Shown here piece after piece: positions 15,822 to 59,011 of a stretch of 64,000 bases of DNA. A program made the position numbers and the translations under genes. Position 1 is the stretch's first letter, and every line of letters begins with the position of its first letter. The stretch lies in assembly GCA_046290465.1 (NCBI GenBank), contig JBKAGP010000001.1:576001-640000 (forward strand). The letters run 5' to 3'. This DNA is from Planctomycetota bacterium (lineage in GTDB: Bacteria > Planctomycetota > UBA1135 > UBA2386). The notes under the pieces were generated by a model, which was not told the origin of the DNA, ran no database searches, and saw only the letters and a program-made list of their open reading frames with translations.

Positions 15822-17006
15822 TCAGCGTTGGAAGATCGGCAGGTACTGCCGCGGCATCTGCAGCAGGATGCACGCCATCGCCGTTCCCATCTCGTCGCCG
15901 GGACCGACGCGGTTGCGCCAGCGACCGTCGGCTGCCTGCGCGTCGAGCAGGTCGCGCGCCAGCCGGGCATAGAACGCGCGCAGGCGCGGGCCGCCGAACT
16001 GGTAGAAGGCCTGCGCCGCGTAGTAGTTGCCGTACCAGTAGTAGAAGTGGTCCCGGTAGTAGCCGCCCGCGACGTTCGCGTACTGCTTCTCGAGGAACGA
16101 CAGCACCGGGTCGCTGAGCTCGTCGTCGTGCACGCCGGCGCTGGCCAGCGCCGTCATCGCGGCGGCGTTGATCGCGTACTGCTGGGACTTCTGGTACTGG
16201 CCGCGTCCGTAGATCTTGTAGTAGTACAGGCCGCGGTCGTAGCCGTTCTGCACCCGGCTCTTGCTCACGTAGCCCATCGCGCGGTCGATGGTTTCGCTCG
16301 GCACGCGGATGCCGATGTTGCGCGCGGCGCGCAGCGCCTGCAGCTGGCAGACCGTCACCGACAGGTCGAGCTCGCGGTCGAACGCGTTGTAGCGCCAGCC
16401 GCCGTGCTGGTTCTGGCAGTCGACGATCAGGTTGACCGCCTTCTCGAGCGTGACCTTGGCGCGCTCGTTGGCGGCCATGCCGTAGACCTCCGCGAGGAAC
16501 AGCGTGCCGAACGCGTGGCTGTACATCCGCGTGCCGGCGGCGCTCAGCAGGCCCGACTGCTGCGAGCGGGTGATCACGAAGTCCTCGGCGCGCTTGATCA
16601 CGTCCTGGTAGCGGCCGCGGTCCGGCAGGTGGCCACCGGCGAGGAACGCCATGCCGCAGATCGCGGTGACGCCGAGGTGGCCCTCGCCCTTGCTGCGCTG
16701 CGCGTCGGGCAGCAGCGCGTTGTCGAGCAGCTGGTAGTTGTCCTGCTGCTTGTGGCCGACATAGCCGACCCAGGCGCCCGACGACAGCTGCTGCTTCTGC
16801 AGCCAGGCGAGGCCGCGGTCGGCGGCCTTGGCGCACTCGTCGGCCAGCTTGCGGTCGAACCAGGCCTCGTCGTCGACCTTGGTCTTTGGCTTTCCGGTGG
16901 CGCTGGTCGGGCCCTGCTCGAGCACGGCCTCGGGCTTCGGACTCTGCGGTGTCGGGCCTTGCGGCACCTGCGAGAGCAGAGCGGTCAGCGCGAGGAGCGT
17001 GAGCAT
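15822..17006 (-). CDS. Secreted prenyltransferase/squalene-oxidase repeat (alpha/alpha barrel) protein
   Basis: Signal peptide; QW-like repeats LQKQQLSSGAW, IVDCQNQHGGWRY, LLDAQAADGRW; MYSHAFGTLFLAE, DLSVT..QLQALRAA, YYAAQA. Confidence 0.85.
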   Translation of the reverse strand: MLTLLALTALLSQVPQGPTPQSPKPEAVLEQGPTSATGKPKTKVDDEAWFDRKLADECAKAADRGLAWLQKQQLSSGAWVGYVGHKQQDNYQLLDNALLPDAQRSKGEGHLGVTAICGMAFLAGGHLPDRGRYQDVIKRAEDFVITRSQQSGLLSAAGTRMYSHAFGTLFLAEVYGMAANERAKVTLEKAVNLIVDCQNQHGGWRYNAFDRELDLSVTVCQLQALRAARNIGIRVPSETIDRAMGYVSKSRVQNGYDRGLYYYKIYGRGQYQKSQQYAINAAAMTALASAGVHDDELSDPVLSFLEKQYANVAGGYYRDHFYYWYGNYYAAQAFYQFGGPRLRAFYARLARDLLDAQAADGRWRNRVGPGDEMGTAMACILLQMPRQYLPIFQR

Positions 17007-46228: not shown

Positions 46229-47479
46229 TCAGCGCTTGGTCGGCCGCGGGGGCAGCCACGGCAGCTTCGGGACCGCGGCGCGGTCGGGGTAGACCTCGGC
46301 GCGGAGCTGGCGGCCGACCAGGGCGTGGTCGCCGCGCAGCGCCTGGAACGAGAAGTGCACGTGGCCGGGCATGACCGCGTCGGCGCGGCGCGTCAGCAGG
46401 ATCTCGTCGCGCAGTTCGGTGGCGCGGATGCGGCCGCCGCCGTCGCGGATCTTGCTGGTGTAGAGGCCGGGCCAGATCGCGCGGCCCTTGCGGTTCTGCG
46501 CGTGCCAGTAGTCCAGCAGCACCGCGAACGCCTGCGGCTTCTGGTCGATCGGCCAGTACAGCTGCGGCGTCAGGTAGTCGCACCAGCCGTTGCGCAGCCA
46601 CTTCGGCACGTCGGCGTAGATGTCGCTGTACTGGTCGAGTCCGGCCTGGATGCCCTTCGGCACGCCCGGCCGCGCGATCCCGAACGGGCTGATGCCGACC
46701 ATCAGCCACGGCTTCTCGTCGTGCACCAGCTGGTAGAGCCGTTCGACGAACGTGTCGATGTTCTGCCGACGCCAGTCGCCGCGCGACAGCTTGCCGCCCT
46801 GCTTGCGATAGGTCTGCCAGCTCGCGTCGTCGGGGAACGGCCGCTTGTTTTCCGGGTACGGATAGAAGTAGTCGTCGATGTGCACGCCGTCGACGTCGTA
46901 GCGGCGCACGACGTCCTGGATCACCGCCAGCGTCCACTTGCGCGCGGTCGGGTGGCCCGGGTCCATCCACGTCCAGCGACCGTACTTCCACGTCAGGTGC
47001 GGCGCGCGTCGGGTGACGTGGGTCTCGTGCGGCGGCGACTTGCTGGCCTTGTGCACGCAGCGGAACGGGTTGAACCAGGCGTGCAGCTGCAAGCCGTTGC
47101 GGTGGCAGCGGTCGACCAGGTAGGCGAGCGGGTCGAAGCCGTCGGCCGGCGCCTTGCCCTGCACGCCGGTCAGCCACTCCGACCACGGCTCCAGCGGCGA
47201 GTCGTAGAACGCGTCGCCGGCCGCGCGCACCTGGAAGATCAGCGCGTTGAGCCGCAGCTCGACGGCACGGTGCACGATCGCGTCGAGTTCGTCGCGCAGC
47301 TGGTCGACCGACAGTCCCTTGCGCGACGGCCAGTCGATGTTGTTGACGGTCGCGACCCACGCGGCGCGAAACTCGGCGGGCGTGCCGCCACGCGCACGGT
47401 CTTGTGCATCGACCGGCAGAGAACATGCGAGCGTCGCGAGCAGGCACGCGAACGGCAACCAGCGAAAGGCTTGGATCAT
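46229..47479 (-). CDS. Glycoside hydrolase-like family 10 (YddW/DigH-like) protein
   Basis: EFRAAWVATVNNIDWPS, FQVR..GDAFY.S..EPWS, LHAWFNPFR, RYDVDGVHIDDYFYPY, GISPFG, DYLTPQLYW; signal/lipoprotein-like N-terminus. Confidence 0.9.
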   Translation of the reverse strand: MIQAFRWLPFACLLATLACSLPVDAQDRARGGTPAEFRAAWVATVNNIDWPSRKGLSVDQLRDELDAIVHRAVELRLNALIFQVRAAGDAFYDSPLEPWSEWLTGVQGKAPADGFDPLAYLVDRCHRNGLQLHAWFNPFRCVHKASKSPPHETHVTRRAPHLTWKYGRWTWMDPGHPTARKWTLAVIQDVVRRYDVDGVHIDDYFYPYPENKRPFPDDASWQTYRKQGGKLSRGDWRRQNIDTFVERLYQLVHDEKPWLMVGISPFGIARPGVPKGIQAGLDQYSDIYADVPKWLRNGWCDYLTPQLYWPIDQKPQAFAVLLDYWHAQNRKGRAIWPGLYTSKIRDGGGRIRATELRDEILLTRRADAVMPGHVHFSFQALRGDHALVGRQLRAEVYPDRAAVPKLPWLPPRPTKR

Positions 47480-47702
47480 CGGCAAACAGCACCCCCGTAG
47501 CTCCCGTATCATGCCGGGTTCGACGCCGGTGTCCCACCTCGCTCTGCTCGAAGCGGCTGGCGGTGGGGTGTTGGCGGTTCGGGCCAACTTTCCTGCCGTC
47601 CTCGGCGACCTCGCAGACGGGATGCAGCGACGTCGCGTGCGAGCTACGTTGCATCCTTCCCGGCCGCGAATCTTCTCGGCCCGGACCGATACCCACGCCC
47701 AC

Positions 47703-50700
47703 ATGTCCGCCCCTCGCTCCCTGTTGTTCGTCGCGCTCGGCGCGTCGCTCGCCGTCGCCCAGAACGGCCGTCGCCCCGAGGACTTCCAGATCGCGATCGG
47801 CATGCAGAACCGCGGCCTGCACGAGGAGGCGGTGCGCTACCTGAGCAAGTTCGTGCGCGAGAACGGCCAGCACCAGCTCGTGCCCGAGGCCTACTACCGG
47901 CTGGCGCAGTCGCAGATCGAGCGCAAGCAGACCGACGCCGCCATCGACGCGCTGAAGAAGGCGCTGCAGCGCGGTGGCGCCAGGTTCGAGCTGCTGCCGG
48001 AGGCGCGCTACCGACTCGGCGGCCTGCTGCAGGAGAAGGGCGACCAGCAGGGGGCGCAGCAGCAGTTCGCGGCGCTGGCGGGCGGCGTCGCCGACGACCA
48101 CTACCTCGCAGCGGCGGCGAGCTACGCGCTCGGCGAGACGTTGCGCGACCTCGACCGCGACGCGCCGGCGGCCGAGGCGTTCGGCAAGGCGGCCGCGCTG
48201 GCCGACGGTGAGCAGCGCGGCTTCCGATTTCCGTCGCTGTACCAGCAAGGCTTCGCCTACCTGCGCCTCAACCAGTTCGATCCGGCCGCCAAGGCGTTCG
48301 CCCGGGCGTGCGACGTCGCGCCGGACCAGGCGGCCAAGGGCGAGTGCAGCTACCTGGTCGGCGACGCGCGGCTGCGGCTCGAGCAGTACGTACCCGCGCG
48401 ACAGGCGTTCGAGGCGGCGCGCAAGGTCGGCGGCGAGTTCGCCGACGACGCGCAGTTCGGCCTCGGCTGGGTCGCGCTCGGCAGCGACGATCGCGACGGC
48501 GCGCTGCGCGCGTTCGGGCGGCTGATCGAGCGCCACCCGGATTCTCCGTTCGTCGCCAATGCACGGCTCGAACGGGCGCGCTGCTACTACCAGGCGCAGC
48601 AGTTCGACCGGGCCGGCAACGAACTGCGGCCGCTGCTGGCCGAGGCCGGTCCGCTGCAGCAGGAGGCGCGCGAACTCGAAGGCCTGTGTGCGCTGGCCAG
48701 CGGCAAGGGCCAGGCGGCGGTGCAGACGCTGGAGCAAGCGCTCGCCGCGGCTAGCGACGAGGACAAGCCGCGGCTGTCGTTCGCGCTCGGTGAGGCGTTG
48801 TCCAACCTCGAGCAATGGGGCGATGCGCTGCGGGCCTACCGCGCGGTGCCGGCGTCGGTCGGCGCAGACCTCTACGGCGACGCGCTCTACGGCGCCTGCC
48901 ACGCGCTGCACGAACTCGGTCGCAACCAGGAGTCGATCCAGTGCGCCGACGCGGTCCTGCAGCTCGAGCCGGCGCACCGTTCGCGGGTGCTGGCGCAGCT
49001 GGCGATCGCCGAGAACCGCTTCGCGCTGCGCGAGTTCGCCGCCGCCGAGCAGGTCTACCAGCAGCTGGAGAAGGTCGACGCGCACCGCCGCACGGCGCGC
49101 TGGAAGCTGTCGTGGTGCCGCTACCTGCAGGGGGACAAGCAGGGCGCGGCCGAGCGCTTCGGTGCGGTCGCCAAGGACCGTGAGGACGGCAACGCCGAGG
49201 AGGCGATGGCGATGCAGGCGCTGGCGCTCTACGAGAGCGGCGCCCAGGACCCGGCGCTGCAGGTCGCCGACCGCTACCGCGCGCGCTACCAGCAGGGCCG
49301 CTTCCTGGCGCGCACCGAGCGGATCGCGGCGCGCGTGCTGCGCCAGCGCGGCGACCTCGGCGCGGCCCAGCGCCGGCTCGAGCGCGCCGCCGCGATCGCG
49401 CGGCAGCAGGGCGGTGACGAGGCCGGCAGCGCCGACGTCGCCGAGCAGGCCGACCTCGCCTACCAGCAGGGCGACTACGAGGCCGCCGACCAGCTGTTCG
49501 CGCAGCTGACGTCGCGCGACGACGCGACCGGCGCGCGCGCGCTGGCGGGGCGCGCGTGGTGTGCGTTCGAGCTGGGCAACGACGCGCCGTGCCTGCAGGC
49601 GCTGCAGGCAGCCCGGCAACACCCGGCGGCCAAGGACGAGCTGGCCGGGTTGCTCGAGCTGGAGTCGGCGGTGCGCCACCGGCGGCAGGAGTGGCCAGAG
49701 GCGATCCAGGCGGCGCGCACGTTCTTGCAGAACCACGGCAAGCACCCGAAGGCGCCGATGCTGCGCTATGCGCTCGGCGTCGCGCTGGCGCGCAACGGCG
49801 ACCAGAAGGGCGCGCAGCAGGTGCTCGCCGCGCTGGCCGCCGACGGCGGCTACAACGAGCCCGATCGCGTCGTCTACGAACTCGCGTGGGCGCTGCGGCG
49901 CGGCGGCGACGAACGCGCGGCGCTGCAGCAGTTCGGCAAGGTCACGGCGATGACCGAGGACGTCGAGCTGGCCGGCGAGTCGCGGCTGTTCGTCGGCACC
50001 GACCTGCTGGCGCAACAGCCACCGAAGCTCGCAGCCGCGCGCAAGGTGCTCGAGCAGGTGCAGGGCAGCCACCGCAAGCAGGCGCTCTACCGGCTCGGCT
50101 TCGCCGAGTTCGAGGCCGCGACCGCTGAGGCCGCGATCGCTGAGGATGGCGCGCCGGTCGATCGCAAGCTGCTCGGTGCAGCGCGCGACCACTTCACCGA
50201 GATCGTCGGCATCGAGGGCGAGGAGCTGCGCCACGAAGCGCTCTACCTCGGCGCCGAGTCGTGCCGACGGCTCGGCGATGCCGAGGGCGCGCTGCAGCGC
50301 GCGCAGCTGCTGCTGCGGGAGGCCAACCAGCACGCGCGCGCGCCGCGGGCGCGGTTGGTGGTCGGCGAGTGCGCCCTGCTTGCCGAACGGCCCGACGACG
50401 CGATCGCGCCGTTGGAGCGGTTCCTGCGCGAGCACGACGCCGCCGCGGACGAGGTCGCGCGCGCCGACGCGGCGCGCGCCAACCTGTGGCTCGGCAAGGC
50501 CCGGCTGCAGCGGCGCCAGCACGAGCAGGCCGAGCGCTGCTTCCAGCTGGTGACCGGCCTCAGCGACGGCGCGCTCGCGGCCGAGGCGCAGTTCCGGCTC
50601 GGCGAGAGCCGCGCGCTGCGCAACGACCTCAACGGCGCGGCCGACGCGTTCGTCAAGATCCCGATCCTCTATGCCGACGCCGAGTGGGTGCGTAAGGGCC

Positions 50701-50825
50701 TGCTGCAGGCCGGCCTCACCTACAAGCGCATGAAGCAGCCGGCCAAGGCCACGCGGTTCTTCGACGAGCTGCTCGACAAGCACAAGGGCAGCGACGAAGC
50801 CAAGGTCGCGGCCGCGCAACGATAG
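47703..50825 (+). CDS. Large secreted/periplasmic TPR protein (CpoB/BamD-like repeats)
   Basis: Signal peptide; ~20 TPR-like units (PEAYYRLA, DDAQFGLGW, RHPDSPF..NA, AEAQFRLGE). Confidence 0.9.
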   Translation: MSAPRSLLFVALGASLAVAQNGRRPEDFQIAIGMQNRGLHEEAVRYLSKFVRENGQHQLVPEAYYRLAQSQIERKQTDAAIDALKKALQRGGARFELLPEARYRLGGLLQEKGDQQGAQQQFAALAGGVADDHYLAAAASYALGETLRDLDRDAPAAEAFGKAAALADGEQRGFRFPSLYQQGFAYLRLNQFDPAAKAFARACDVAPDQAAKGECSYLVGDARLRLEQYVPARQAFEAARKVGGEFADDAQFGLGWVALGSDDRDGALRAFGRLIERHPDSPFVANARLERARCYYQAQQFDRAGNELRPLLAEAGPLQQEARELEGLCALASGKGQAAVQTLEQALAAASDEDKPRLSFALGEALSNLEQWGDALRAYRAVPASVGADLYGDALYGACHALHELGRNQESIQCADAVLQLEPAHRSRVLAQLAIAENRFALREFAAAEQVYQQLEKVDAHRRTARWKLSWCRYLQGDKQGAAERFGAVAKDREDGNAEEAMAMQALALYESGAQDPALQVADRYRARYQQGRFLARTERIAARVLRQRGDLGAAQRRLERAAAIARQQGGDEAGSADVAEQADLAYQQGDYEAADQLFAQLTSRDDATGARALAGRAWCAFELGNDAPCLQALQAARQHPAAKDELAGLLELESAVRHRRQEWPEAIQAARTFLQNHGKHPKAPMLRYALGVALARNGDQKGAQQVLAALAADGGYNEPDRVVYELAWALRRGGDERAALQQFGKVTAMTEDVELAGESRLFVGTDLLAQQPPKLAAARKVLEQVQGSHRKQALYRLGFAEFEAATAEAAIAEDGAPVDRKLLGAARDHFTEIVGIEGEELRHEALYLGAESCRRLGDAEGALQRAQLLLREANQHARAPRARLVVGECALLAERPDDAIAPLERFLREHDAAADEVARADAARANLWLGKARLQRRQHEQAERCFQLVTGLSDGALAAEAQFRLGESRALRNDLNGAADAFVKIPILYADAEWVRKGLLQAGLTYKRMKQPAKATRFFDELLDKHKGSDEAKVAAAQR

Positions 50826-50838
50826 ACAGGACTCCGCC

Positions 50839-51573
50839 ATGCTCTCGCTGATGCCCCAGTCGCCGAACGTCGTGCAGACGATCGGCGAGTTCTTCACCGC
50901 CGGCGGCCTGTTGATGTGGCCGATCCTGATCTGCTCGATCGTGTTGGTCGGCCTTGCGCTCGAACGGTACCTGAGCCTGCGTCGCGGTCGCGTGCTGCCG
51001 CAGGTCGTCGTCGACGCGGCGCACCAGTGCACCGAGGGCCGCGCCGACGTGATCGCCGCCGGGATCCTCGAGGCCAGGGCGCCGGGCGCGCGCGTGCTGG
51101 CGGCCGGGCTGCGGCGCCGCGGCTGCCTGCTCGCCGACGTCGAGAAGGCGATGGAGGACCGCCTGCACGAGGAGGGCGCCAAGCTGAAGGGCAACGTCGC
51201 CGGCATCCTGGTGGTCGCCGCGGTCGCGCCGCTGCTCGGCCTGCTCGGCACCGTGCTCGGCATTGCCGACGCGTTCGCGGCGGTCGAACAGACCGGGCTC
51301 GGCAGCCAGGAGGGCAGCGAAGCGCTCGCCGCCGGCATCAAGGTCGCGCTCTACACGACGATCTTCGGCCTGTTCGTGGCGATCCCGGCGACGCTGCTCG
51401 CCGCGCACCTGAAGGCGCGCGCCCGGCGGCTGGTCGCGGCGATCGCCGACACCGTGACGCCGACCGTCGAGGCGCTGGCGTCGCTGCCGCCGACGGCGAA
51501 GACCCCGGACCCGGCCGCGGCCGAGCGGGACGCGGCGTCGAGCGACGAGCCGGAGGAGACCCATGCGGCTTGA
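50839..51573 (+). CDS. MotA/TolQ/ExbB proton channel family protein
   Basis: GG.LMWPIL.CS...LERY, APLLGLLGTVLG, GI.VALYTT.FGL.VAIP. Confidence 0.93.
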   Translation: MLSLMPQSPNVVQTIGEFFTAGGLLMWPILICSIVLVGLALERYLSLRRGRVLPQVVVDAAHQCTEGRADVIAAGILEARAPGARVLAAGLRRRGCLLADVEKAMEDRLHEEGAKLKGNVAGILVVAAVAPLLGLLGTVLGIADAFAAVEQTGLGSQEGSEALAAGIKVALYTTIFGLFVAIPATLLAAHLKARARRLVAAIADTVTPTVEALASLPPTAKTPDPAAAERDAASSDEPEETHAA

Positions 51574-51976
51574 GTCCGACAGCGACGAAGAGCTCGGCAT
51601 CAACCTGATGCCGCTGGTCGACGTGGTGTTCCTGCTGCTGATCTTCTTTCTGGCGGCGACGACGTTCTCGCGCGACGAGGTCGAACTCGACCTGCGCCTG
51701 CCCGAGGCCAAGACCGGCGAGGCCGGCAAGTCCAACCGGCAGCTGATCATCAACGTGTCCTCGGACGGCTCGCTGACGATGGCGGGGCGCAACGTCACGT
51801 TCGAGGCGCTCAAGCAGAAGCTGGTCGCCGCCGTGTCGCGCAACAAGGACCAGGCGGTCTTGGTGCGCGGCGACAAGGCGGCGCAGTTCGGCATCGGCCT
51901 GCAGGTGCTCGACACCTGCCGGATGGCCAAGGTCAAGAAGGTCGACTTCGCGGCGCTGCCGTCGAAGAAGGGGTAG
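51563..51976 (+). CDS. ExbD/TolR biopolymer transport protein
   Basis: INLMPLVDVVFLLLIFF (essential Asp), LP.A, VRGDK; overlaps the ExbB gene end. Confidence 0.93.
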   Translation: MRLESDSDEELGINLMPLVDVVFLLLIFFLAATTFSRDEVELDLRLPEAKTGEAGKSNRQLIINVSSDGSLTMAGRNVTFEALKQKLVAAVSRNKDQAVLVRGDKAAQFGIGLQVLDTCRMAKVKKVDFAALPSKKG

Positions 51977-51980
51977 GCAC

Positions 51981-54900
51981 ATGGCGATCGGGGCGCGCAC
52001 CAGGCGGTGGTTGATGTGGGCGGCGTGGACCGTCCTGTGCCTGGCGTCCGCGATGTACGTCGGCCTCGTCGTCGGTCGGCCGCTCTACTACAGCGACGGC
52101 GGCCAGCAGGTCGCCGGTGCCGACATGGCCGGCGCCGGCATGCTGCGCTGGACCACGCCCGCGGCCGAACGCGAACTGCCGGTCGATCCGATCGGGCGGG
52201 TGGCGCAGCTGCCGGACGGGGCGCTGCTGTTCGGCATGGCCACGGAAGCGGGCACCAGCGACCTGTTCACCTGGCACCCGGATCGCCCCGACGTGCCGCC
52301 CGAGCCCGCCTACGGTCTCAACACCGAGCACAACGAACTGGCGCCGGCGGTCGGTCCCGACCAGCGCGTCTACTTCACGTCGGACCGGCCGGACGCGATC
52401 GGCGGCTACGACCTGTTCGCGACCACCTGGACGCCGCGCGGCTTCGGCCGGGTGACGCCGATGGCGGCCTGCAACACGGCGTTCGACGAGACCGATCCGG
52501 CTCCCGATCCGACCGGCACGTCGCTGGTGTTCGTGCGCATCGACCGCGCCATCGACGACGGCAACGACGGCGTGCTCTACCGCTGGCTGCTCGGCGATCC
52601 GCTCGATCCGTCGCTGGTGTTCCCCGACCAGGCGCGCCGCCGCGAACGGGTGGTCGATCGCGATCCGGCGTTCGCGCCCAACGGTGCGTCGCTGTGGTTC
52701 GTGCGCAAGTTGCGCGGCCGGCCGCTGCTGGTGTGCCGCACCAGCCGGCTCGGCGACGCGTTCGACCGCCCGGTCGAACTGTCGCTCGCATGGGGCACGC
52801 GGTCGCTGCGCAGCCCGCTGCCGCTGCCGGACGGGCAGTCGGTCGCGTTCGTGCAGCCGGCGGCCGGCGAGGACCCGGCGCTGTGGTTCGTCAGCCGTGC
52901 CGAGGAGTTGGTGCCGTGGTGGCCCGGCCAGCAGTGGCTCGAATGGCTGTGCCTGTCGCTGATCGCGTGCGCGGCGCTGCTGCTGCTGCTGCTCTACTTC
53001 GGCCAGCGCTGGAGCGCGCTCGACCTGGTCGCGCAGTGCCTGCTGCTGTCGCTGCTGCTGCACGTGCTGCTGTTCCTGTGGCTGATGGGCGTCGAGATCG
53101 CCGGCTCGCTGCTGCCCGGCAGCGACGACGACGACAGCGGCATGCAGGTCAGCATCGTCGCCTCCGCGGGCGTGGCCAGCGCGAGCCCTTCGGGCGGTGC
53201 GGGCGACGTCGCCGCCAAGGTGCAGCGCACGGTGCGCGAACGTTCGTTCGAGGTGGCCCAGCCGGGCACGGCGACGCAGCGGCCGCAGCCCGACGCGAGC
53301 AACAGCCTCGCGGTCGAGAGCGGCGCCTACCAGGCCGAGCCGACCGCCGAGGCCGAGGCCGAGCCGGCGCAGCTCGACGACGCCGCGGCCGAACTGCAGA
53401 AGCGCGACGGCAGCGATGCGGCGGCCGAACTGCAGCAGGCTGCGATCGGCGCCGTCCAACAGGTGCAGCAGCGAGCCGATCGGGCAGCTGCGCGTTCGGC
53501 AGCGGCCGATCCGAACGCCGAGGCCCGGGTCGTTAGGGTCGAGACGCCCGGCAGCGGCGTGGCGCGCGCGGCGGCGCGCGCGGTCGAGATCGCTGAGGGC
53601 GACGCCAACGCGGCGATCCCGATGCGATCGAGCCCGTCCAACAGCAGCTCGCCCGATGCGCCGGCGATGCAGGACGCCGCCTCGGCGGCGTCGCTGGCCG
53701 CGGCCGAAACGCGCGCGGACGCGGCGCCCGCACCGGTCGGCATGACCACCGAGGCGTCGCTGTCGGCGGCGCCGGCGAGCGCGTCGGTCGCGGCTCCAGA
53801 GCGCGGCGCCAGCAAGACCAGCGACGACGCGGTCACGGTCGCGATGCCCGGCAGCACCGTCGGTCGTTCGGCCAGCCGTCGCATCGACGCCCAGCCGGCG
53901 GCGCGCGAGGTCGCGGTCGCCGGGCCGCGCAGCCTGCCGCGACCCAGCATGCAGCTGCGCGGCGATCGCCCGGCCGGCGGCGCGCTGCCGGCGCGCAGCG
54001 AGGCCGCCGGCCCCGCACCGACTGCTGCGGTCGCCGCCGTCGAGGTGACGGCACCGGCCACACCCGACACGTCGACGGTCCGGGCGGCCCGCACCGCGCG
54101 GGCCGGCGAGCGGCCGTCGCCGCGCGAATCGCTGGCGACGCCGGGCTCGGCGCTGCGCCGTTCGCGACCGGTGGTGGCGATGCGCGGGCCGAGCGTGCGC
54201 ACGGCGCCGAAGGCCAGCCTGCGCGGTGGTGCGCCGATCGCGCTGAAGGATGGCGGCGGCCGACGCCCCGGCGGCGACGCGCCCAGCCGCGAGCCGCGAG
54301 CAGCGGCGGCCAGTGCGCCGGTCGCCGCCGCCGCGCAGCCGCTGCCGGACCAGCCGACCGGCAACCCGTCGTTCGCGCCGCGGCGCGCGCGCCCGGCGCG
54401 CAGCAGCACCGCCGGGGCGTTCGCCGCGCGGTTCCCGGTGACGCCGCCCGGCACCGAGGTCGCGCGCGCCGCGCCGCGGCCGTCGTCGCTGCCGCAGCCG
54501 AGCCAGCCGGTGGTCCAGAAGAACGCCTACAGCAACCGCTTCGGCCCGGCCAAGGCGCAGGCGCTGGAGCGCTTCGGCGGCACCGAGGAGACCGAGCGCG
54601 CGGTGCGCGACGGGCTGGCCTACCTGGCCAGCATCCAGAACCGCGACGGCTCGTGGGGCAACCGCCGCGACTACGACGGCAAGTACGGCTTCGTCTACGT
54701 CGGCAAGACCGCGCTGTGCATGCTGGCGTTCCTGGGCGCGGGCCACACGCCGTCGTCGAACAGCGAGCACTCGGTGGTGGTCACCCGCGCGCTCGAGCAT
54801 CTGCTGGCGCTGCAGGACGAGGACACCGGCGCGTTCGGCCGCAGCTCGTGCTACGGCCACGGCATCGCGACCTATGCGCTGGCCGAGTGCTACGGCCTGA

Positions 54901-55631
54901 CCAAGAACGACGACCTGCTGCGCCCGCTCGAGGACGCGCTGACCTGGATCCTGGCCAACCAGGGCCCGCGCAGCGACCAGCGCAACCGCGGCGGCTGGGG
55001 CTACTTCTCGCCCGGTCTGCGGGCCGAGGACAGCTACGCGCGCGTGTCGGTGTCGTCGTGGATGATCATGGCGCTCGAGTCGGCGCGTCTGTCGGGCATC
55101 GAACTGCCCGAGGACGTGCTGCCGGCGGCGCGCCAGTACCTCGAGCTGTCGTTCGACCGCCCGAACGGCTGGTTCCGCTACAACCACAAGCCGTCGCGGC
55201 TGCGCTCTGGCTGGCCGACGCTGCCCGCCAGCACGCCGGCGGCGGCGTTCTGCCTGATGCTGATGGGCGTCGAGAAGGACGACCGCATGGTCGAGGTCGC
55301 CAGCGACTACACGGTCGAGCGCCGGCCGCGCAGCTACCGGCGCTACCGCGACGACGACTTCGTGCTGCGCGGCCAGGGCAACGTCTACTTCTGGTACTAC
55401 GGCTCGCTGTGCTGCTTCCTGAAGGGCGGCCAGCAGTGGCAGCGGTGGAACGAACGGCTCAGCACGGTACTGCCGCAGGCGCAGAACGAGGACGGCTCGT
55501 GGACGCCGATCGACGTCTACGCCGAGGAGGCCGGCGACAACCGGCGTGACCGCAGCTACACGACGGCGATGTGCGTGCTGAGCCTGGAGGTCTACTACCG
55601 ATACTTCACGCCGCTGCTGTTGGGTCGGTAG
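51981..55631 (+). CDS. Multidomain membrane protein: PD40/TolB-like propeller, TM hairpin with TonB-type S-x3-H motif, Ala/Pro/Arg-rich linker, prenyltransferase-like alpha barrel
   Basis: LNTEHNELAPAV.PD..VYFTSDRP...GGYDL and NTAFDETDPAP (PD40); LLSLLLHVLL; ~470-aa low-complexity linker; QW-like repeats LASIQNRDGSW, LALQDEDTGAF, RGGWGY, AQNEDGSW; LSLEVYYRY. Confidence 0.85.
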   Translation: MAIGARTRRWLMWAAWTVLCLASAMYVGLVVGRPLYYSDGGQQVAGADMAGAGMLRWTTPAAERELPVDPIGRVAQLPDGALLFGMATEAGTSDLFTWHPDRPDVPPEPAYGLNTEHNELAPAVGPDQRVYFTSDRPDAIGGYDLFATTWTPRGFGRVTPMAACNTAFDETDPAPDPTGTSLVFVRIDRAIDDGNDGVLYRWLLGDPLDPSLVFPDQARRRERVVDRDPAFAPNGASLWFVRKLRGRPLLVCRTSRLGDAFDRPVELSLAWGTRSLRSPLPLPDGQSVAFVQPAAGEDPALWFVSRAEELVPWWPGQQWLEWLCLSLIACAALLLLLLYFGQRWSALDLVAQCLLLSLLLHVLLFLWLMGVEIAGSLLPGSDDDDSGMQVSIVASAGVASASPSGGAGDVAAKVQRTVRERSFEVAQPGTATQRPQPDASNSLAVESGAYQAEPTAEAEAEPAQLDDAAAELQKRDGSDAAAELQQAAIGAVQQVQQRADRAAARSAAADPNAEARVVRVETPGSGVARAAARAVEIAEGDANAAIPMRSSPSNSSSPDAPAMQDAASAASLAAAETRADAAPAPVGMTTEASLSAAPASASVAAPERGASKTSDDAVTVAMPGSTVGRSASRRIDAQPAAREVAVAGPRSLPRPSMQLRGDRPAGGALPARSEAAGPAPTAAVAAVEVTAPATPDTSTVRAARTARAGERPSPRESLATPGSALRRSRPVVAMRGPSVRTAPKASLRGGAPIALKDGGGRRPGGDAPSREPRAAAASAPVAAAAQPLPDQPTGNPSFAPRRARPARSSTAGAFAARFPVTPPGTEVARAAPRPSSLPQPSQPVVQKNAYSNRFGPAKAQALERFGGTEETERAVRDGLAYLASIQNRDGSWGNRRDYDGKYGFVYVGKTALCMLAFLGAGHTPSSNSEHSVVVTRALEHLLALQDEDTGAFGRSSCYGHGIATYALAECYGLTKNDDLLRPLEDALTWILANQGPRSDQRNRGGWGYFSPGLRAEDSYARVSVSSWMIMALESARLSGIELPEDVLPAARQYLELSFDRPNGWFRYNHKPSRLRSGWPTLPASTPAAAFCLMLMGVEKDDRMVEVASDYTVERRPRSYRRYRDDDFVLRGQGNVYFWYYGSLCCFLKGGQQWQRWNERLSTVLPQAQNEDGSWTPIDVYAEEAGDNRRDRSYTTAMCVLSLEVYYRYFTPLLLGR

Positions 55632-55659: not shown

Positions 55660-56232
55660 ATGTCCAACACCAAGTTCGTGCTCCGCACGGTCGTGCTCGC
55701 GCTCGCGGGCAGCGTGCTCGTCTTCCTCGGCGTCGGCCTGATCCTGGCCGACGAATGGACGGTCACGACCACGCGCACGATGGCGCTGCCGCCGGCGCAG
55801 GTCGCCGGGGCCGTGCGCGACCTCGACGCGTGGTCGAAGTGGTCGTCGATCGACTTCCAGCTCGGCAACCCGACCAACCGCAGCTTCCGCGGCGAGGCCG
55901 GCAAGCCGGGGCAGGAGGCGATGTGGAGCGGCCCGCTCGGCCAGGCGGTGGTGACGCTCGACGCGGTGACCGAGACCGGCGTCGACTACCGCATCGGCTT
56001 CGTCTACCGCCAGGGCAACACCGGCGGCAAGTTCGCCGGCAGCATCAGCTGGAAGGCGAACGGCGGCTCCACCGAGGTGACCTGGACCGAGCACGGCAAG
56101 CTCAACTCGCTGATCGAGCGCTGGACCAACTGGTTCGGGGCGCTGCAGGACAAGGTGCAGCAGATCCAGCGCGCCAGCCTCGCCGGCCTCGAGGAGCACG
56201 TGCTCGAGCAGCAGCCGGACGGCAACAAGTAG
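55660..56232 (+). CDS. SRPBCC (polyketide cyclase-like) family protein with N-terminal anchor
   Basis: N-terminal TM; DL.AWSKWS, GSTEVTWT, C-terminal helix SLAGLEE. Confidence 0.75.
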   Translation: MSNTKFVLRTVVLALAGSVLVFLGVGLILADEWTVTTTRTMALPPAQVAGAVRDLDAWSKWSSIDFQLGNPTNRSFRGEAGKPGQEAMWSGPLGQAVVTLDAVTETGVDYRIGFVYRQGNTGGKFAGSISWKANGGSTEVTWTEHGKLNSLIERWTNWFGALQDKVQQIQRASLAGLEEHVLEQQPDGNK

Positions 56233-56869: not shown

Positions 56870-59011
56870 ATGAACAAGCCGTGGGGCGTGGTGTTGGGGC
56901 TGCTGTCGATGGCCGCCCTGCCGGGGCAGGAGCACGGCGGTGGGCAGGCCGGGCAAGGCGACCGGCAGGAGCCGCGCCCGGCCAACCGCCTCGACAAGGA
57001 GTCGTCGCCGTACCTGCGCCAGCACCGGCACAACCCGGTCGACTGGCACCCGTGGGGCGACGAAGCGCTCGCGCTGGCCAAGAAGCTCGACAAGCCGATC
57101 TTCCTGAGCATCGGCTATTCGGCGTGCCACTGGTGCCACGTGATGGCGGCCGAGAGCTTCTCGGACCCCGAGGTCGCCAAGCTGATGAACGAGAAGTTCG
57201 TCTGCATCAAGGTCGACCGCGAGGAGCGGCCCGACATCGACCAGATCTACATGGGCGCGCTGCACGCAATGGGCAAGCAGGGCGGCTGGCCGCTGTCGGC
57301 GTGGCTGACGCCGGACGGCAAGCCGTTCTTCGGCGGCACCTACTTCCCGCCGACGGCGAGCCGCGGCCTGCCGTCGTTCCGCCTGGTCTGCGAGTCGCTC
57401 GCCAACGCCTGGGCGGACGAGCGCGACAAGGTGCTGCAGGGTGCGGGCGAGCTGAGCGAGCACCTCGAGCAGGCGCTGGCGCCGTCGCTGCCGGCGGGCG
57501 AGCCGACGCCGGCGCTGTTCGGCAAGGTGCTGGCGGAGGCCCGGGACTGGTACGACGCCGAGCATCCGGGCTTCGCCGCACCGCCGCGGTTCGCGCCGAA
57601 GTTCCCGCAGGCCTCGCAGCTGCAGATGCTGCTGCGGAACGACGACCAGCAGGGCCGCGCGATGGCGCTGGCGGCGCTGCGCGCGATGGCGCGCGGCGGC
57701 ATCCACGACCAGCTCGGTGGTGGCTTCCATCGCTACAGCACCGACCGCCGCTGGCTGGTGCCGCACTTCGAGAAGATGCTCTACGACAACGCGCTGTTGG
57801 CGTCGGCATACCTCGAGGCGAGCCAGGTGGAGAAGGACGGACCGTTCGCGAGCGTCGCGCGCAGCACGCTCGACTACCTGCTGCGCGAGATGCAGGCGCC
57901 CGACGGTGGCTTCTGGTCGAGCCAGGACGCGCAGTCCGAAGCCGTCGAGGGCAAGTTCTTCGTCTGGAGCCGTGACGAGATCGAGCAGCTGCTCGGCGAC
58001 GACGCCGAGCTCGTCTGCGACGTGTTCGGGGTGACGGCGGCCGGCAACTGGGACGGCACCAACGTGCTGTGGCAGGCGCAGGACGTGCCCGCGACCGAGG
58101 CGTTCGCCGCGGCGCGTGCCAGACTGTTCGCAGCGCGCGCCGAGCGGGTGCGGCCCGGCACCGACGACAAGGTGCTGGTGGCGTGGAACGGCATGGCGAT
58201 CGAAGCGCTGTGCGACGGCTACCGCGTGCTCGGCGACCGTCGCTACCTCGAGGCCGCGCAACGCGCCGGTGCGTTCCTGCTCGAACGGTGCGTGGTCGAC
58301 GGTCGGGTCCGCCGCAGCTGGCAGGGTGGCAGCGCGCCGTTCGCCGGCTACCTCGAGGACCATGCCTCGCTGGCCAACGCGCTGCTGGCGCTGTTCGAGA
58401 GCGACTTCGAGGGGCGCTGGCTGCGCGCCGCGAAGCAGGTGCTGCAGACCACCAGGGACCACTTCCGGGCCGAGGACGGTTCGTTCTACTTCACCGCCGA
58501 CGACCACGAGCAGCTGCTGGCGCGCACCAAAAGCGCCAGCGAGGGCGCGACGCCGTCCGGCATCGCGATGGCGGCGCGGGCGTTCTTGCGGGCGGGGCTG
58601 CTGCTCGGCGACGACGCCGTCTACCAGCTGGGGGCCGGCGCGCTGCGCGCCAACCACGCGCTGCTCGCCCACAGCCCGGCGTCGGCGCCGGCGCTGATGC
58701 GCGCGGTGCAGCTGCACCTCGGCGCGCCCAAGGAGATCGTGATCGCCGGCCGACCCGACGACGCGCGCACCCAGGCGCTGCTGCGCGCGGCGTGGCGGCG
58801 GTTCCCGCAGCCCGGCGTGGTCGCGTGCGTGCACGACGGCAACCGCGAGGCGCTGGTGGCGATCAGCAAGGTCTTCGATGGCAAGCTGCCGAGGGACGGC
58901 GCGCCGTGCGCCTACGTCTGCGAACGGGGCGTCTGCCAGGCGCCGGTCACGACGGTCGACGCGCTGCGGCAGGCGTGGGGGGCGGCGAAGCCCGCGGAGG
59001 GCGGCAGGTGA
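56870..59011 (+). CDS. YyaL/SPATA20 family thioredoxin-domain (DUF255) plus (alpha/alpha)6 protein
   Basis: [72 protein letters not shown]. Confidence 0.93.

Follow-up and report, generated by a model that had tools for sequence, protein, structure and literature searches.

Why a planctomycete should place an ExbB-ExbD motor beside a protein that ends in a terpene-cyclase-like barrel is the question raised by a four-gene cassette in the 64-kb stretch of DNA analysed here (the window), which comes from a Planctomycetota bacterium whose genome is a single contig of 6.59 Mb. The four open reading frames (ORFs), all on the plus strand between 47703 and 55631, encode in order a protein of tetratricopeptide repeats (TPR), an ExbB/TolQ subunit, an ExbD/TolR subunit and a long protein that we call the arm, and they are separated by gaps of 13, -11 and 4 bp, just as an earlier sequence-only reading of the window had described. 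The arm is probably a force transducer of the TonB/TolA type that carries a toroid head and pulls on a ligand in the outer envelope. The proposal of a TonB/TolA analogue had been made before and finds support in an S/A-x3-H motif, the predicted periplasmic topology, the gene order, a partner Ser in ExbB and a strand that had gone unnoticed.

Predicted docking of the arm on the motor

Judged by analogy with Ton and Tol, coupling of the arm to the ExbB-ExbD motor is very probable. According to passages of PMC12215075, the histidine of the transducer in Tol and Ton structures contacts Ser34/Trp38 of ExbB or Ser28/Trp32 of TolQ, a site linked to a proline in the third transmembrane (TM) helix of the motor subunit, and TolQ Ser28 contacts TolA His22. 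The S-L-L-L-H noticed earlier in the second membrane helix behind the arm's propeller is indeed present there (S357-x3-H361), and across homologues its histidine is invariant, with Ser or Ala at position 357. The helix region is matched in 131 of 150 barrel homologues, all 131 of which have His361 (most of the other 19 are fragments, though four are longer than 1000 aa), and the histidine recurs in 61/61 loci that were selected by the barrel only and have the helix region on the contig, as well as in 40/40 distant loci. Within the first 400 residues of a 64-row alignment, no column other than His361 and Pro279 is invariant.

On the motor side, ExbB Ser33, the equivalent of TolQ Ser28, and Pro183, the TM3 proline linked to the histidine-contact site, are both invariant. 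The membrane threonines of ExbB (GLLGT, ALYTT) and the membrane Asp of ExbD (PLVD), pointed out before, are present and, as T138, T173 and T174 of ExbB and D20 of ExbD, invariant in the aligned orthologues. The ExbB profile favours TolQ over ExbB (1e-25 versus 1e-17), and by family analogy the subunits would form a 5:2 ExbB:ExbD motor. Seventeen residues past its own TM3 the arm has a strand of alternating hydrophobic residues that fits six of the seven positions of the D-box pattern given in passages of PMC10907165; V390 is Val, Ile or Leu in 129/131 homologues, and the mean conservation of this motor-box-like strand is 0.52, compared with 0.28 directly upstream. The count obtained with a permissive motor-box pattern (33/39) lacks a control and is not used as evidence.

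Both hydropathy and a model of arm residues 1-400 (mean pLDDT 90) yield the order TM1, beta-propeller, TM2, short loop, TM3. Since the charge bias fits an N-in/out/in/out topology, the propeller, tether and barrel are predicted to be periplasmic: mean numbers of Lys+Arg and Asp+Glu (at most 64 aligned rows) are 2.8/0.7 before TM1, 1.0/2.7 after TM1, 2.6/1.3 in the TM2-TM3 loop and 1.5/3.5 after TM3, with the segment before TM2, which is also basic (2.4/1.5), being where a cleaner fit fails. The helix of TonB is oriented N-in/C-out, and the predicted TM3 of the arm has the same orientation. The Ala/Pro/Arg-rich linker, put at about 470 aa in the sequence-only reading, measures ~473 residues from TM3 to the barrel, and its 450-residue core has 85% disorder-promoting residues; whole tethers span 260-708 aa in 129 homologues, and no internal repeat was found in the tether.

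The top structural match of the propeller is TolB (E 1e-11). However, it sits between TM1 and TM2 without space for the N-terminal domain of TolB and, being held at both ends in the inner membrane, should not be able to reach the outer membrane as TolB does. A TolB-like propeller fused in cis had been proposed, and this stands for the fold but not for TolB-like shuttling. The first protein of the cassette consists wholly of TPR repeats by Pfam and has a signal-peptide-like N-terminus ending A-V-A/Q, with the Gln after the signal region kept in 48 orthologues; it is predicted to be an exported periplasmic scaffold. Its earlier description as CpoB-like is apt in that its repeats are of the YbgF type, but it is not CpoB: the CpoB model scores 37 bits, below a cut-off of 383, and the YbgF model exceeds its cut-off solely by summing five stretches of this 1040-aa all-TPR protein.

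Conservation of the gene order

The order TPR-ExbB-ExbD-arm is conserved in 55 of 56 barrel-selected loci with at least 2 kb upstream (80 fetched), 18 of 20 relatives and 38 of 40 distant loci (one of the 38 with an inserted gene), sets that overlap partly and whose members are kin. The 80 closest loci are records of Planctomycetota, its subgroups or bacteria without finer label, and the distant loci are 40 of 54 non-self places found by a profile of the helix pair. This profile detects the cassette in 53 of 301 Planctomycetota genomes, each at least 90% complete, and in 42 of 217 genera. Variant arrangements occur: at one locus a second arm gene is preceded by an ExbD fragment only (L034:3560-7540), and at two others an extra gene lies between ExbD and the arm, and the product of this extra gene has a barrel set inside a PD40 propeller and a C-terminal membrane helix (L149:2812-5223, L148:226-2742).

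The barrel head and its replacements

Pfam matches in the arm are PD40 (5e-8), SQHop_cyclase_C (6e-6) and Prenyltrans (0.005). In a model of the C-terminal 372 residues (pLDDT 93) these form an (alpha/alpha)6 barrel whose nearest folds are a monodomain cyclase (8PAJ) and squalene-hopene cyclase (SHC), with Z of 26.4 and 26.3, glycoside hydrolases and epimerases being nearly tied (Z ~24). QW-like motifs lie at aa 886, 1000 and 1168, and the sole DxDD, at aa 382, lies outside the barrel in an acidic run, so that the (alpha/alpha) barrel with QW-like repeats and no DXDD cyclase motif, seen before in the letters, is upheld with a fold search added. Class II cyclases require a DxDD or DxD acid (passages of PMC12414744), and because this acid is missing the barrel is not a class II cyclase. 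With a profile of 16 barrels, aa 959-961 align to SHC D377-T378-A379, which puts the catalytic D376 at Tyr958 or at an insertion, in a stretch whose alignment is weak (E 0.1) and whose register is therefore probable rather than certain. At the cyclase DxDDT site the barrel has Y958-x-H960, Tyr958 being invariant and His960 kept in 127 of 128 rows.

It is likely, from conservation mapped onto the model, that the barrel has a conserved ligand site. K901, Y902, Y958, R1021, W1027, Y1067, Y1136, Y1139 and Y1180 are pocket-side and invariant across the 128 rows, and D1017 (126) and E1203 (127) are, like H960, near-invariant; Y958, R1021, W1027, Y1136 and Y1139 lie at or near the starts of inner helices, which form the pocket face in the (alpha/alpha)6 fold. 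The barrel ends a few residues past a Y-Y-R-Y-type motif (window positions 55600-55628), and the terminal residue after this motif is Arg in 9/9 paralogues of this genome and Arg or Lys in 98/120 short-tailed homologues.

Perhaps the barrel is an enzyme other than a class II cyclase that acts on an envelope lipid or glycan, with the motor positioning or switching this enzyme or extracting its substrate. The invariant pocket side would suit such a role, as would the top folds, monodomain cyclases and sugar enzymes, and the stand-alone paralogues, mostly with a signal peptide, that share the Y-x-H motif. However, a Tyr or a gap stands where cyclases have their acid, this fold lacks catalytic activity in complement/macroglobulin domains, which are also among the fold matches, and the head is replaced or extended elsewhere by vWA, PDZ, TonB_C and CarboxypepD_reg modules. 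Among the 40 distant loci, 32 have a barrel, two a vWA domain (L150 and L151, on orthologous cassettes), four CarboxypepD_reg with a beta-sandwich (one of them without propeller and motor genes) and two are cut by the contig end; a PDZ-type tail extends two of the 32 barrels, and a TonB_C-like domain one (Pfam 6e-5, slightly below the cut-off; E. coli TonB, E 0.002). Because these replacing and extending heads are binding modules, a grip is favoured over an enzyme: we consider it reasonably likely that the barrel is a non-catalytic grip, and an enzymatic barrel unlikely. The verdict of the sequence-only reading, probably non-catalytic, therefore stands for class II cyclase activity but not for catalysis more widely, given the conserved Tyr/His/Arg/Trp/Lys of the pocket face.

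An ExbB+ExbD tree (41 rows, 334 columns) unites the vWA loci with two barrel loci at 100% support and joins the CarboxypepD_reg loci, with 88%, to the clade that includes the TonB_C fusion. Deep nodes have 12-72% support, and no order of head exchange is claimed; L148, which lacks ExbB, was left out, and L142 has no motor genes.

Loss of the cassette as a block

The N-terminal half of the arm is matched in six of 14 congeners. Four congeners without the cassette (genomes 90-94% complete) have its glycoside-hydrolase-like and SRPBCC flanks directly adjoining, and in two of these four the end of the barrel gene survives (its last 30-45 codons, 74-89% identical). Since the flanks adjoin and barrel-gene scars remain, the four genes were lost jointly, and the cassette is one dispensable unit. 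The SRPBCC gene was considered as a cassette member and rejected; it remains where the cassette has been lost.

That the cassette is dispensable as a block makes an essential, Tol-Pal-like role unlikely. If the cassette replaced Tol-Pal in planctomycete cell division or in tethering the outer membrane, this would explain the TolB-type propeller, the YbgF-type TPR repeats and an ExbB nearer to TolQ, and the PMC12204202 supplement records the absence of pal from Planctomycetes. However, in addition to the block deletion and the occurrence of the profile in only 53 of the 301 genomes, no Pal is encoded nearby and the propeller cannot quit the inner membrane, making this role quite improbable.

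Relation to known systems

The sequence-only reading had called the machine undescribed, yet its kind is already published. Passages of PMC12204202 (Williams-Jones et al. 2025) describe vWA-headed transducers of the PVC group and other bacteria with a His helix and a motor box, encoded in the PVC group downstream of TPR, tolQ-like and tolR-like genes, and anticipate further such systems; vWA heads also occur on the present chassis. As these passages describe them, the vWA transducers and our arm have in common the His helix, the motor box, a disordered linker, a globular head other than TonB_C and the position downstream of TPR, tolQ-like and tolR-like genes. The cassette differs in an (alpha/alpha)6 toroid instead of a vWA domain, a tether of ~470 aa versus ~100, one tolR-like gene versus a pair, and an added TM1-propeller-TM2 module. 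The words prenyltransferase and squalene are absent from the main text of that paper, and prenyl, squalene, terpene, barrel and toroid from one of its supplements. What would be new here is the barrel head on the arm, the TPR-tolQ-tolR order with vWA-headed transducers having been published in PMC12204202.

With TonB/ExbB-ExbD, as described in passages of PMC10907165 and PMC12215075, the arm shares S-x3-H, the ExbB Ser and TM3 Pro, a D-box-like strand and a proline-containing tether, but it lacks TonB_C (no PF03544 match), an adjacent receptor and ExbB Trp38, and has three membrane helices. Tol-Pal shares the TolQ-like motor, a TolB-type propeller, a TPR partner and an Ala-rich tether, whereas the cassette has no Pal, TolA-III or free TolB, fixes its propeller in the inner membrane, is dispensable and encodes a TPR protein about four times the length of CpoB (CpoB model, 263 positions). 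MstE (6SBB), the myxobacterial 8PAJ/8PAK and squalene-hopene cyclase share the toroid (Z 23-26, ~290 residues) and QW-like repeats at 16-19% identity; in contrast to them, the barrel has Y-x-H in place of DxDD/DxD and is predicted to be periplasmic on a long tether. The arm belongs to none of the TonB, Tol-Pal, vWA or class II cyclase families and, we infer, works like TonB/TolA.

Non-flagellar motors are structurally diverse according to PMC12505986, in whose passages a toroid-headed case does not figure, and no toroid-headed transducer was found in the literature searched, which covered few subscription journals and no bioRxiv supplements. Akkermansia MUL1 was considered as a functional precedent and set aside as unconfirmed, passages of PMC12570417 identifying mul1A as a mucin transport gene and no more.

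Proposed mechanism

The reading that we favour, with somewhat better than even confidence, is an ExbB-ExbD proton motor that has a dedicated TonB/TolA-type arm for pulling on an outer-envelope ligand. A 5:2 motor would be driven via the conserved Thr and Asp residues of the proton path. TM3 of the arm would dock on ExbB TM1, with His361 and Ser357 against ExbB Ser33, the contact being taken from Tol/Ton structures, and the periplasmic dimer of ExbD would capture the strand at aa 388-394. The disordered tether would reach across the periplasm, and the conserved Tyr/His/Arg/Trp/Lys face of the barrel may grip a protein, peptide or glycoconjugate and do a TonB_C-like job, while the propeller, fixed at both ends, may serve as a docking platform and the exported TPR protein as a scaffold. 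Since the cassette is accessory, an energy-dependent role in taking up large molecules or passing them across the outer membrane is favoured, if only tentatively.

Several observations weigh against this scenario. Position 357, Ser in 124/131 homologues, is Ala in 7/131 and in 8/40 distant loci, and the position of TolQ Trp32/ExbB Trp38 is Val or Leu in the ExbB of the cassette. Searched with the helix pair only, solved structures yielded neither TonB nor TolA at E<=10, so that the TolA match of the full-length arm profile, with a composition bias of 52.6, is mostly Ala-rich composition, even if it has S-x3-H in register. The barrel is the best-conserved part of the arm (52-78% identity, compared with 32-52% for the propeller), as would be expected of an enzyme. 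The barrel+TonB_C fusion occurs in four genomes of one genus and is absent from three congeners, and it shows 68% identity to a tonB gene located at a distance of 8 kb, of which it probably represents a recently grafted copy. At one locus a TPR-arm pair has no motor genes between (L045:4365-10642). Clustering of the genes flanking the 80 loci found no recurring outer-membrane partner.

Two further roles deserve mention. The myxobacterial Agl-Glt machine comprises TPR, a TolQ/R-like motor and a TonB-like arm, a parts list that matches the cassette and might point to surface motility or adhesion. vWA heads do occur, and passages of PMC12204202 raise gliding for vWA transducers, but the cassette has no outer-membrane adhesin, beta-barrel or cytoplasmic FHA/ZnR module, and we regard such a role as highly improbable. 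Equally doubtful is that the arm acts as a sensor, in which ligand binding or stretching of the envelope would strain the tether and thereby gate the proton channel of ExbB-ExbD without outward work: a tension-to-motor path via His20/Ser34/Pro190 is proposed for TonB in passages of PMC12215075 and tether length varies almost threefold, but the cassette has no regulator or cytoplasmic output domain, and in Ton and Tol the motor box serves to transfer force.

Neighbouring and related genes

The neighbouring genes include no adjacent TonB-dependent receptor or OmpA/Pal gene, in agreement with the earlier reading; elsewhere the genome has four receptor-like, two TonB_C and two OmpA-domain genes. 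Recurrent flanking genes among the 80 loci are DUF255 (37 loci) and SRPBCC (25 loci), a recurrence that is local synteny. In a promoter and terminator scan nothing exceeded shuffled controls, and Rfam has zero matches in the window.

Features of the cassette and its flanks, with positions in the window
Feature	Position	Strand	Basis or remark
Exported all-TPR protein, 1040 aa	47703..50825	+	Pfam TPR families; TIGR02795 repeats, 5 stretches
ExbB/TolQ motor subunit, 244 aa	50839..51573	+	PF01618 (1e-25)
ExbB S33, TolQ Ser28 equivalent	50935-50937	+	Profile alignment; invariant in 57 rows
ExbD/TolR motor subunit, 137 aa	51563..51976	+	PF02472 (1e-29)
Three-helix inner-membrane force-transducer-like arm, 1216 aa	51981..55631	+	Pfam domains, hydropathy, structure models
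TM1, N-terminal anchor, ~aa 10-33; basic N-terminus, predicted cytoplasmic	52008..52079	+	Hydropathy, model, charge
PD40/TolB-type beta-propeller, aa 56-312, predicted periplasmic	52146..52916	+	PF07676; model
TM2, ~aa 323-341, then conserved cytoplasmic R-W-x2-L-D loop	52947..53003	+	Hydropathy, alignment
TM3, ~aa 353-371, predicted motor-docking helix	53037..53093	+	Conserved S357-x3-H361
S357-x3-H361 (SLLLH), aa 357-361	53049-53063	+	Sequence
Motor-box (D-box)-like strand, aa 388-394, predicted ExbD-binding site	53142..53162	+	Pattern in passages of PMC10907165
Low-complexity Ala/Pro/Arg/Ser tether, aa 396-845	53166..54515	+	Composition
(alpha/alpha)6 toroid head, terpene-cyclase/prenyltransferase superfamily	54516..55628	+	Model, fold matches
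GHL10 glycoside-hydrolase-like gene, flank	46232-47533	-	Syntenic in close relatives, independent of cassette
SRPBCC gene, downstream flank	55660-56232	+	Syntenic in close relatives, independent of cassette
DUF255 gene, flank	56870-59011	+	Syntenic in close relatives, independent of cassette

The barrel family is large, with 10,805 representatives at E<=0.001 and nine further copies in the host genome. Stand-alone barrels with signal-like N-termini are found within the window (15825-17006, minus strand) and within BatA/vWA/PQQ-propeller clusters (L134, G000:C1:957223-973658; L135, G000:C1:4117599-4131565). One chain combines a signal-peptide-like start, an ExbD periplasmic domain and the same barrel (L133, G000:C1:6567496-6569763, minus strand); it lies just upstream of genes with pilin-like N-termini, and its ExbD-containing part matches ORFs of similar length in four of the 14 congeners, all cassette carriers.

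Other His-helix proteins of the host genome end in a barrel (two), a vWA domain (one) or TonB_C (one). The barrel-ended pair are short arms with an S-x3-H helix, a strand and a poly-proline linker (L131, G000:C1:2835269-2840817), and they are retained in relatives that lost the cassette: each of the four cassette-less relatives has two short barrel arms, with S-x3-H in 8/8. The vWA-ended protein, in which an FHA domain is followed by an S-x3-H helix, a proline linker and vWA (L136, G000:C1:3747268-3749466), is likely a vWA-type transducer. There is also a conventional receptor-ExbB-ExbB-ExbD-TonB-TPR cluster (L138, G000:C1:5630186-5638985). Going by N-terminal sequence, MotA-like genes occur in three relatives (L229:7161-7928, L228:6243-7829, L230:7872-10153), two with an adjacent MotB-like gene.

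A further cluster runs secretin, TPR, a protein without assignment, ExbB, ExbD, ExbD, secretin and has no adjacent transducer (L137, G000:C1:1693134-1705420). It is kept in 4/4 relatives checked, where it is the sole ExbB-type locus found. With the sole ExbB-type gene found in the four cassette-less relatives lying between two secretins, it could be proposed that planctomycetes have a modular family of motor-driven arms with exchangeable heads, most often the toroid, and that these energise macromolecule import through non-TonB pores such as secretins. This is speculative and, in our estimate, rather unlikely; each of the four relatives (90-96% complete) also has a TonB_C gene, a possible client of the motor.

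Implications

To our knowledge, how planctomycetes take up large polymers is an open question, and if the import reading is true, the cassette would offer an additional path for force alongside Ton and Tol and a testable handle on this uptake. Of the planctomycete genes annotated as squalene cyclase or prenyltransferase, many probably do not encode terpene enzymes. The known ExbB-ExbD-type routes to the outer envelope are Ton and Tol, joined recently by the proposed vWA transducers; a toroid class, together with the exchange of heads on an orthologous cassette, would make the His helix and motor box a general plug-in for proton-derived force. The cassette also points to individual residues for mutagenesis in a phylum where little is understood of envelope energetics.

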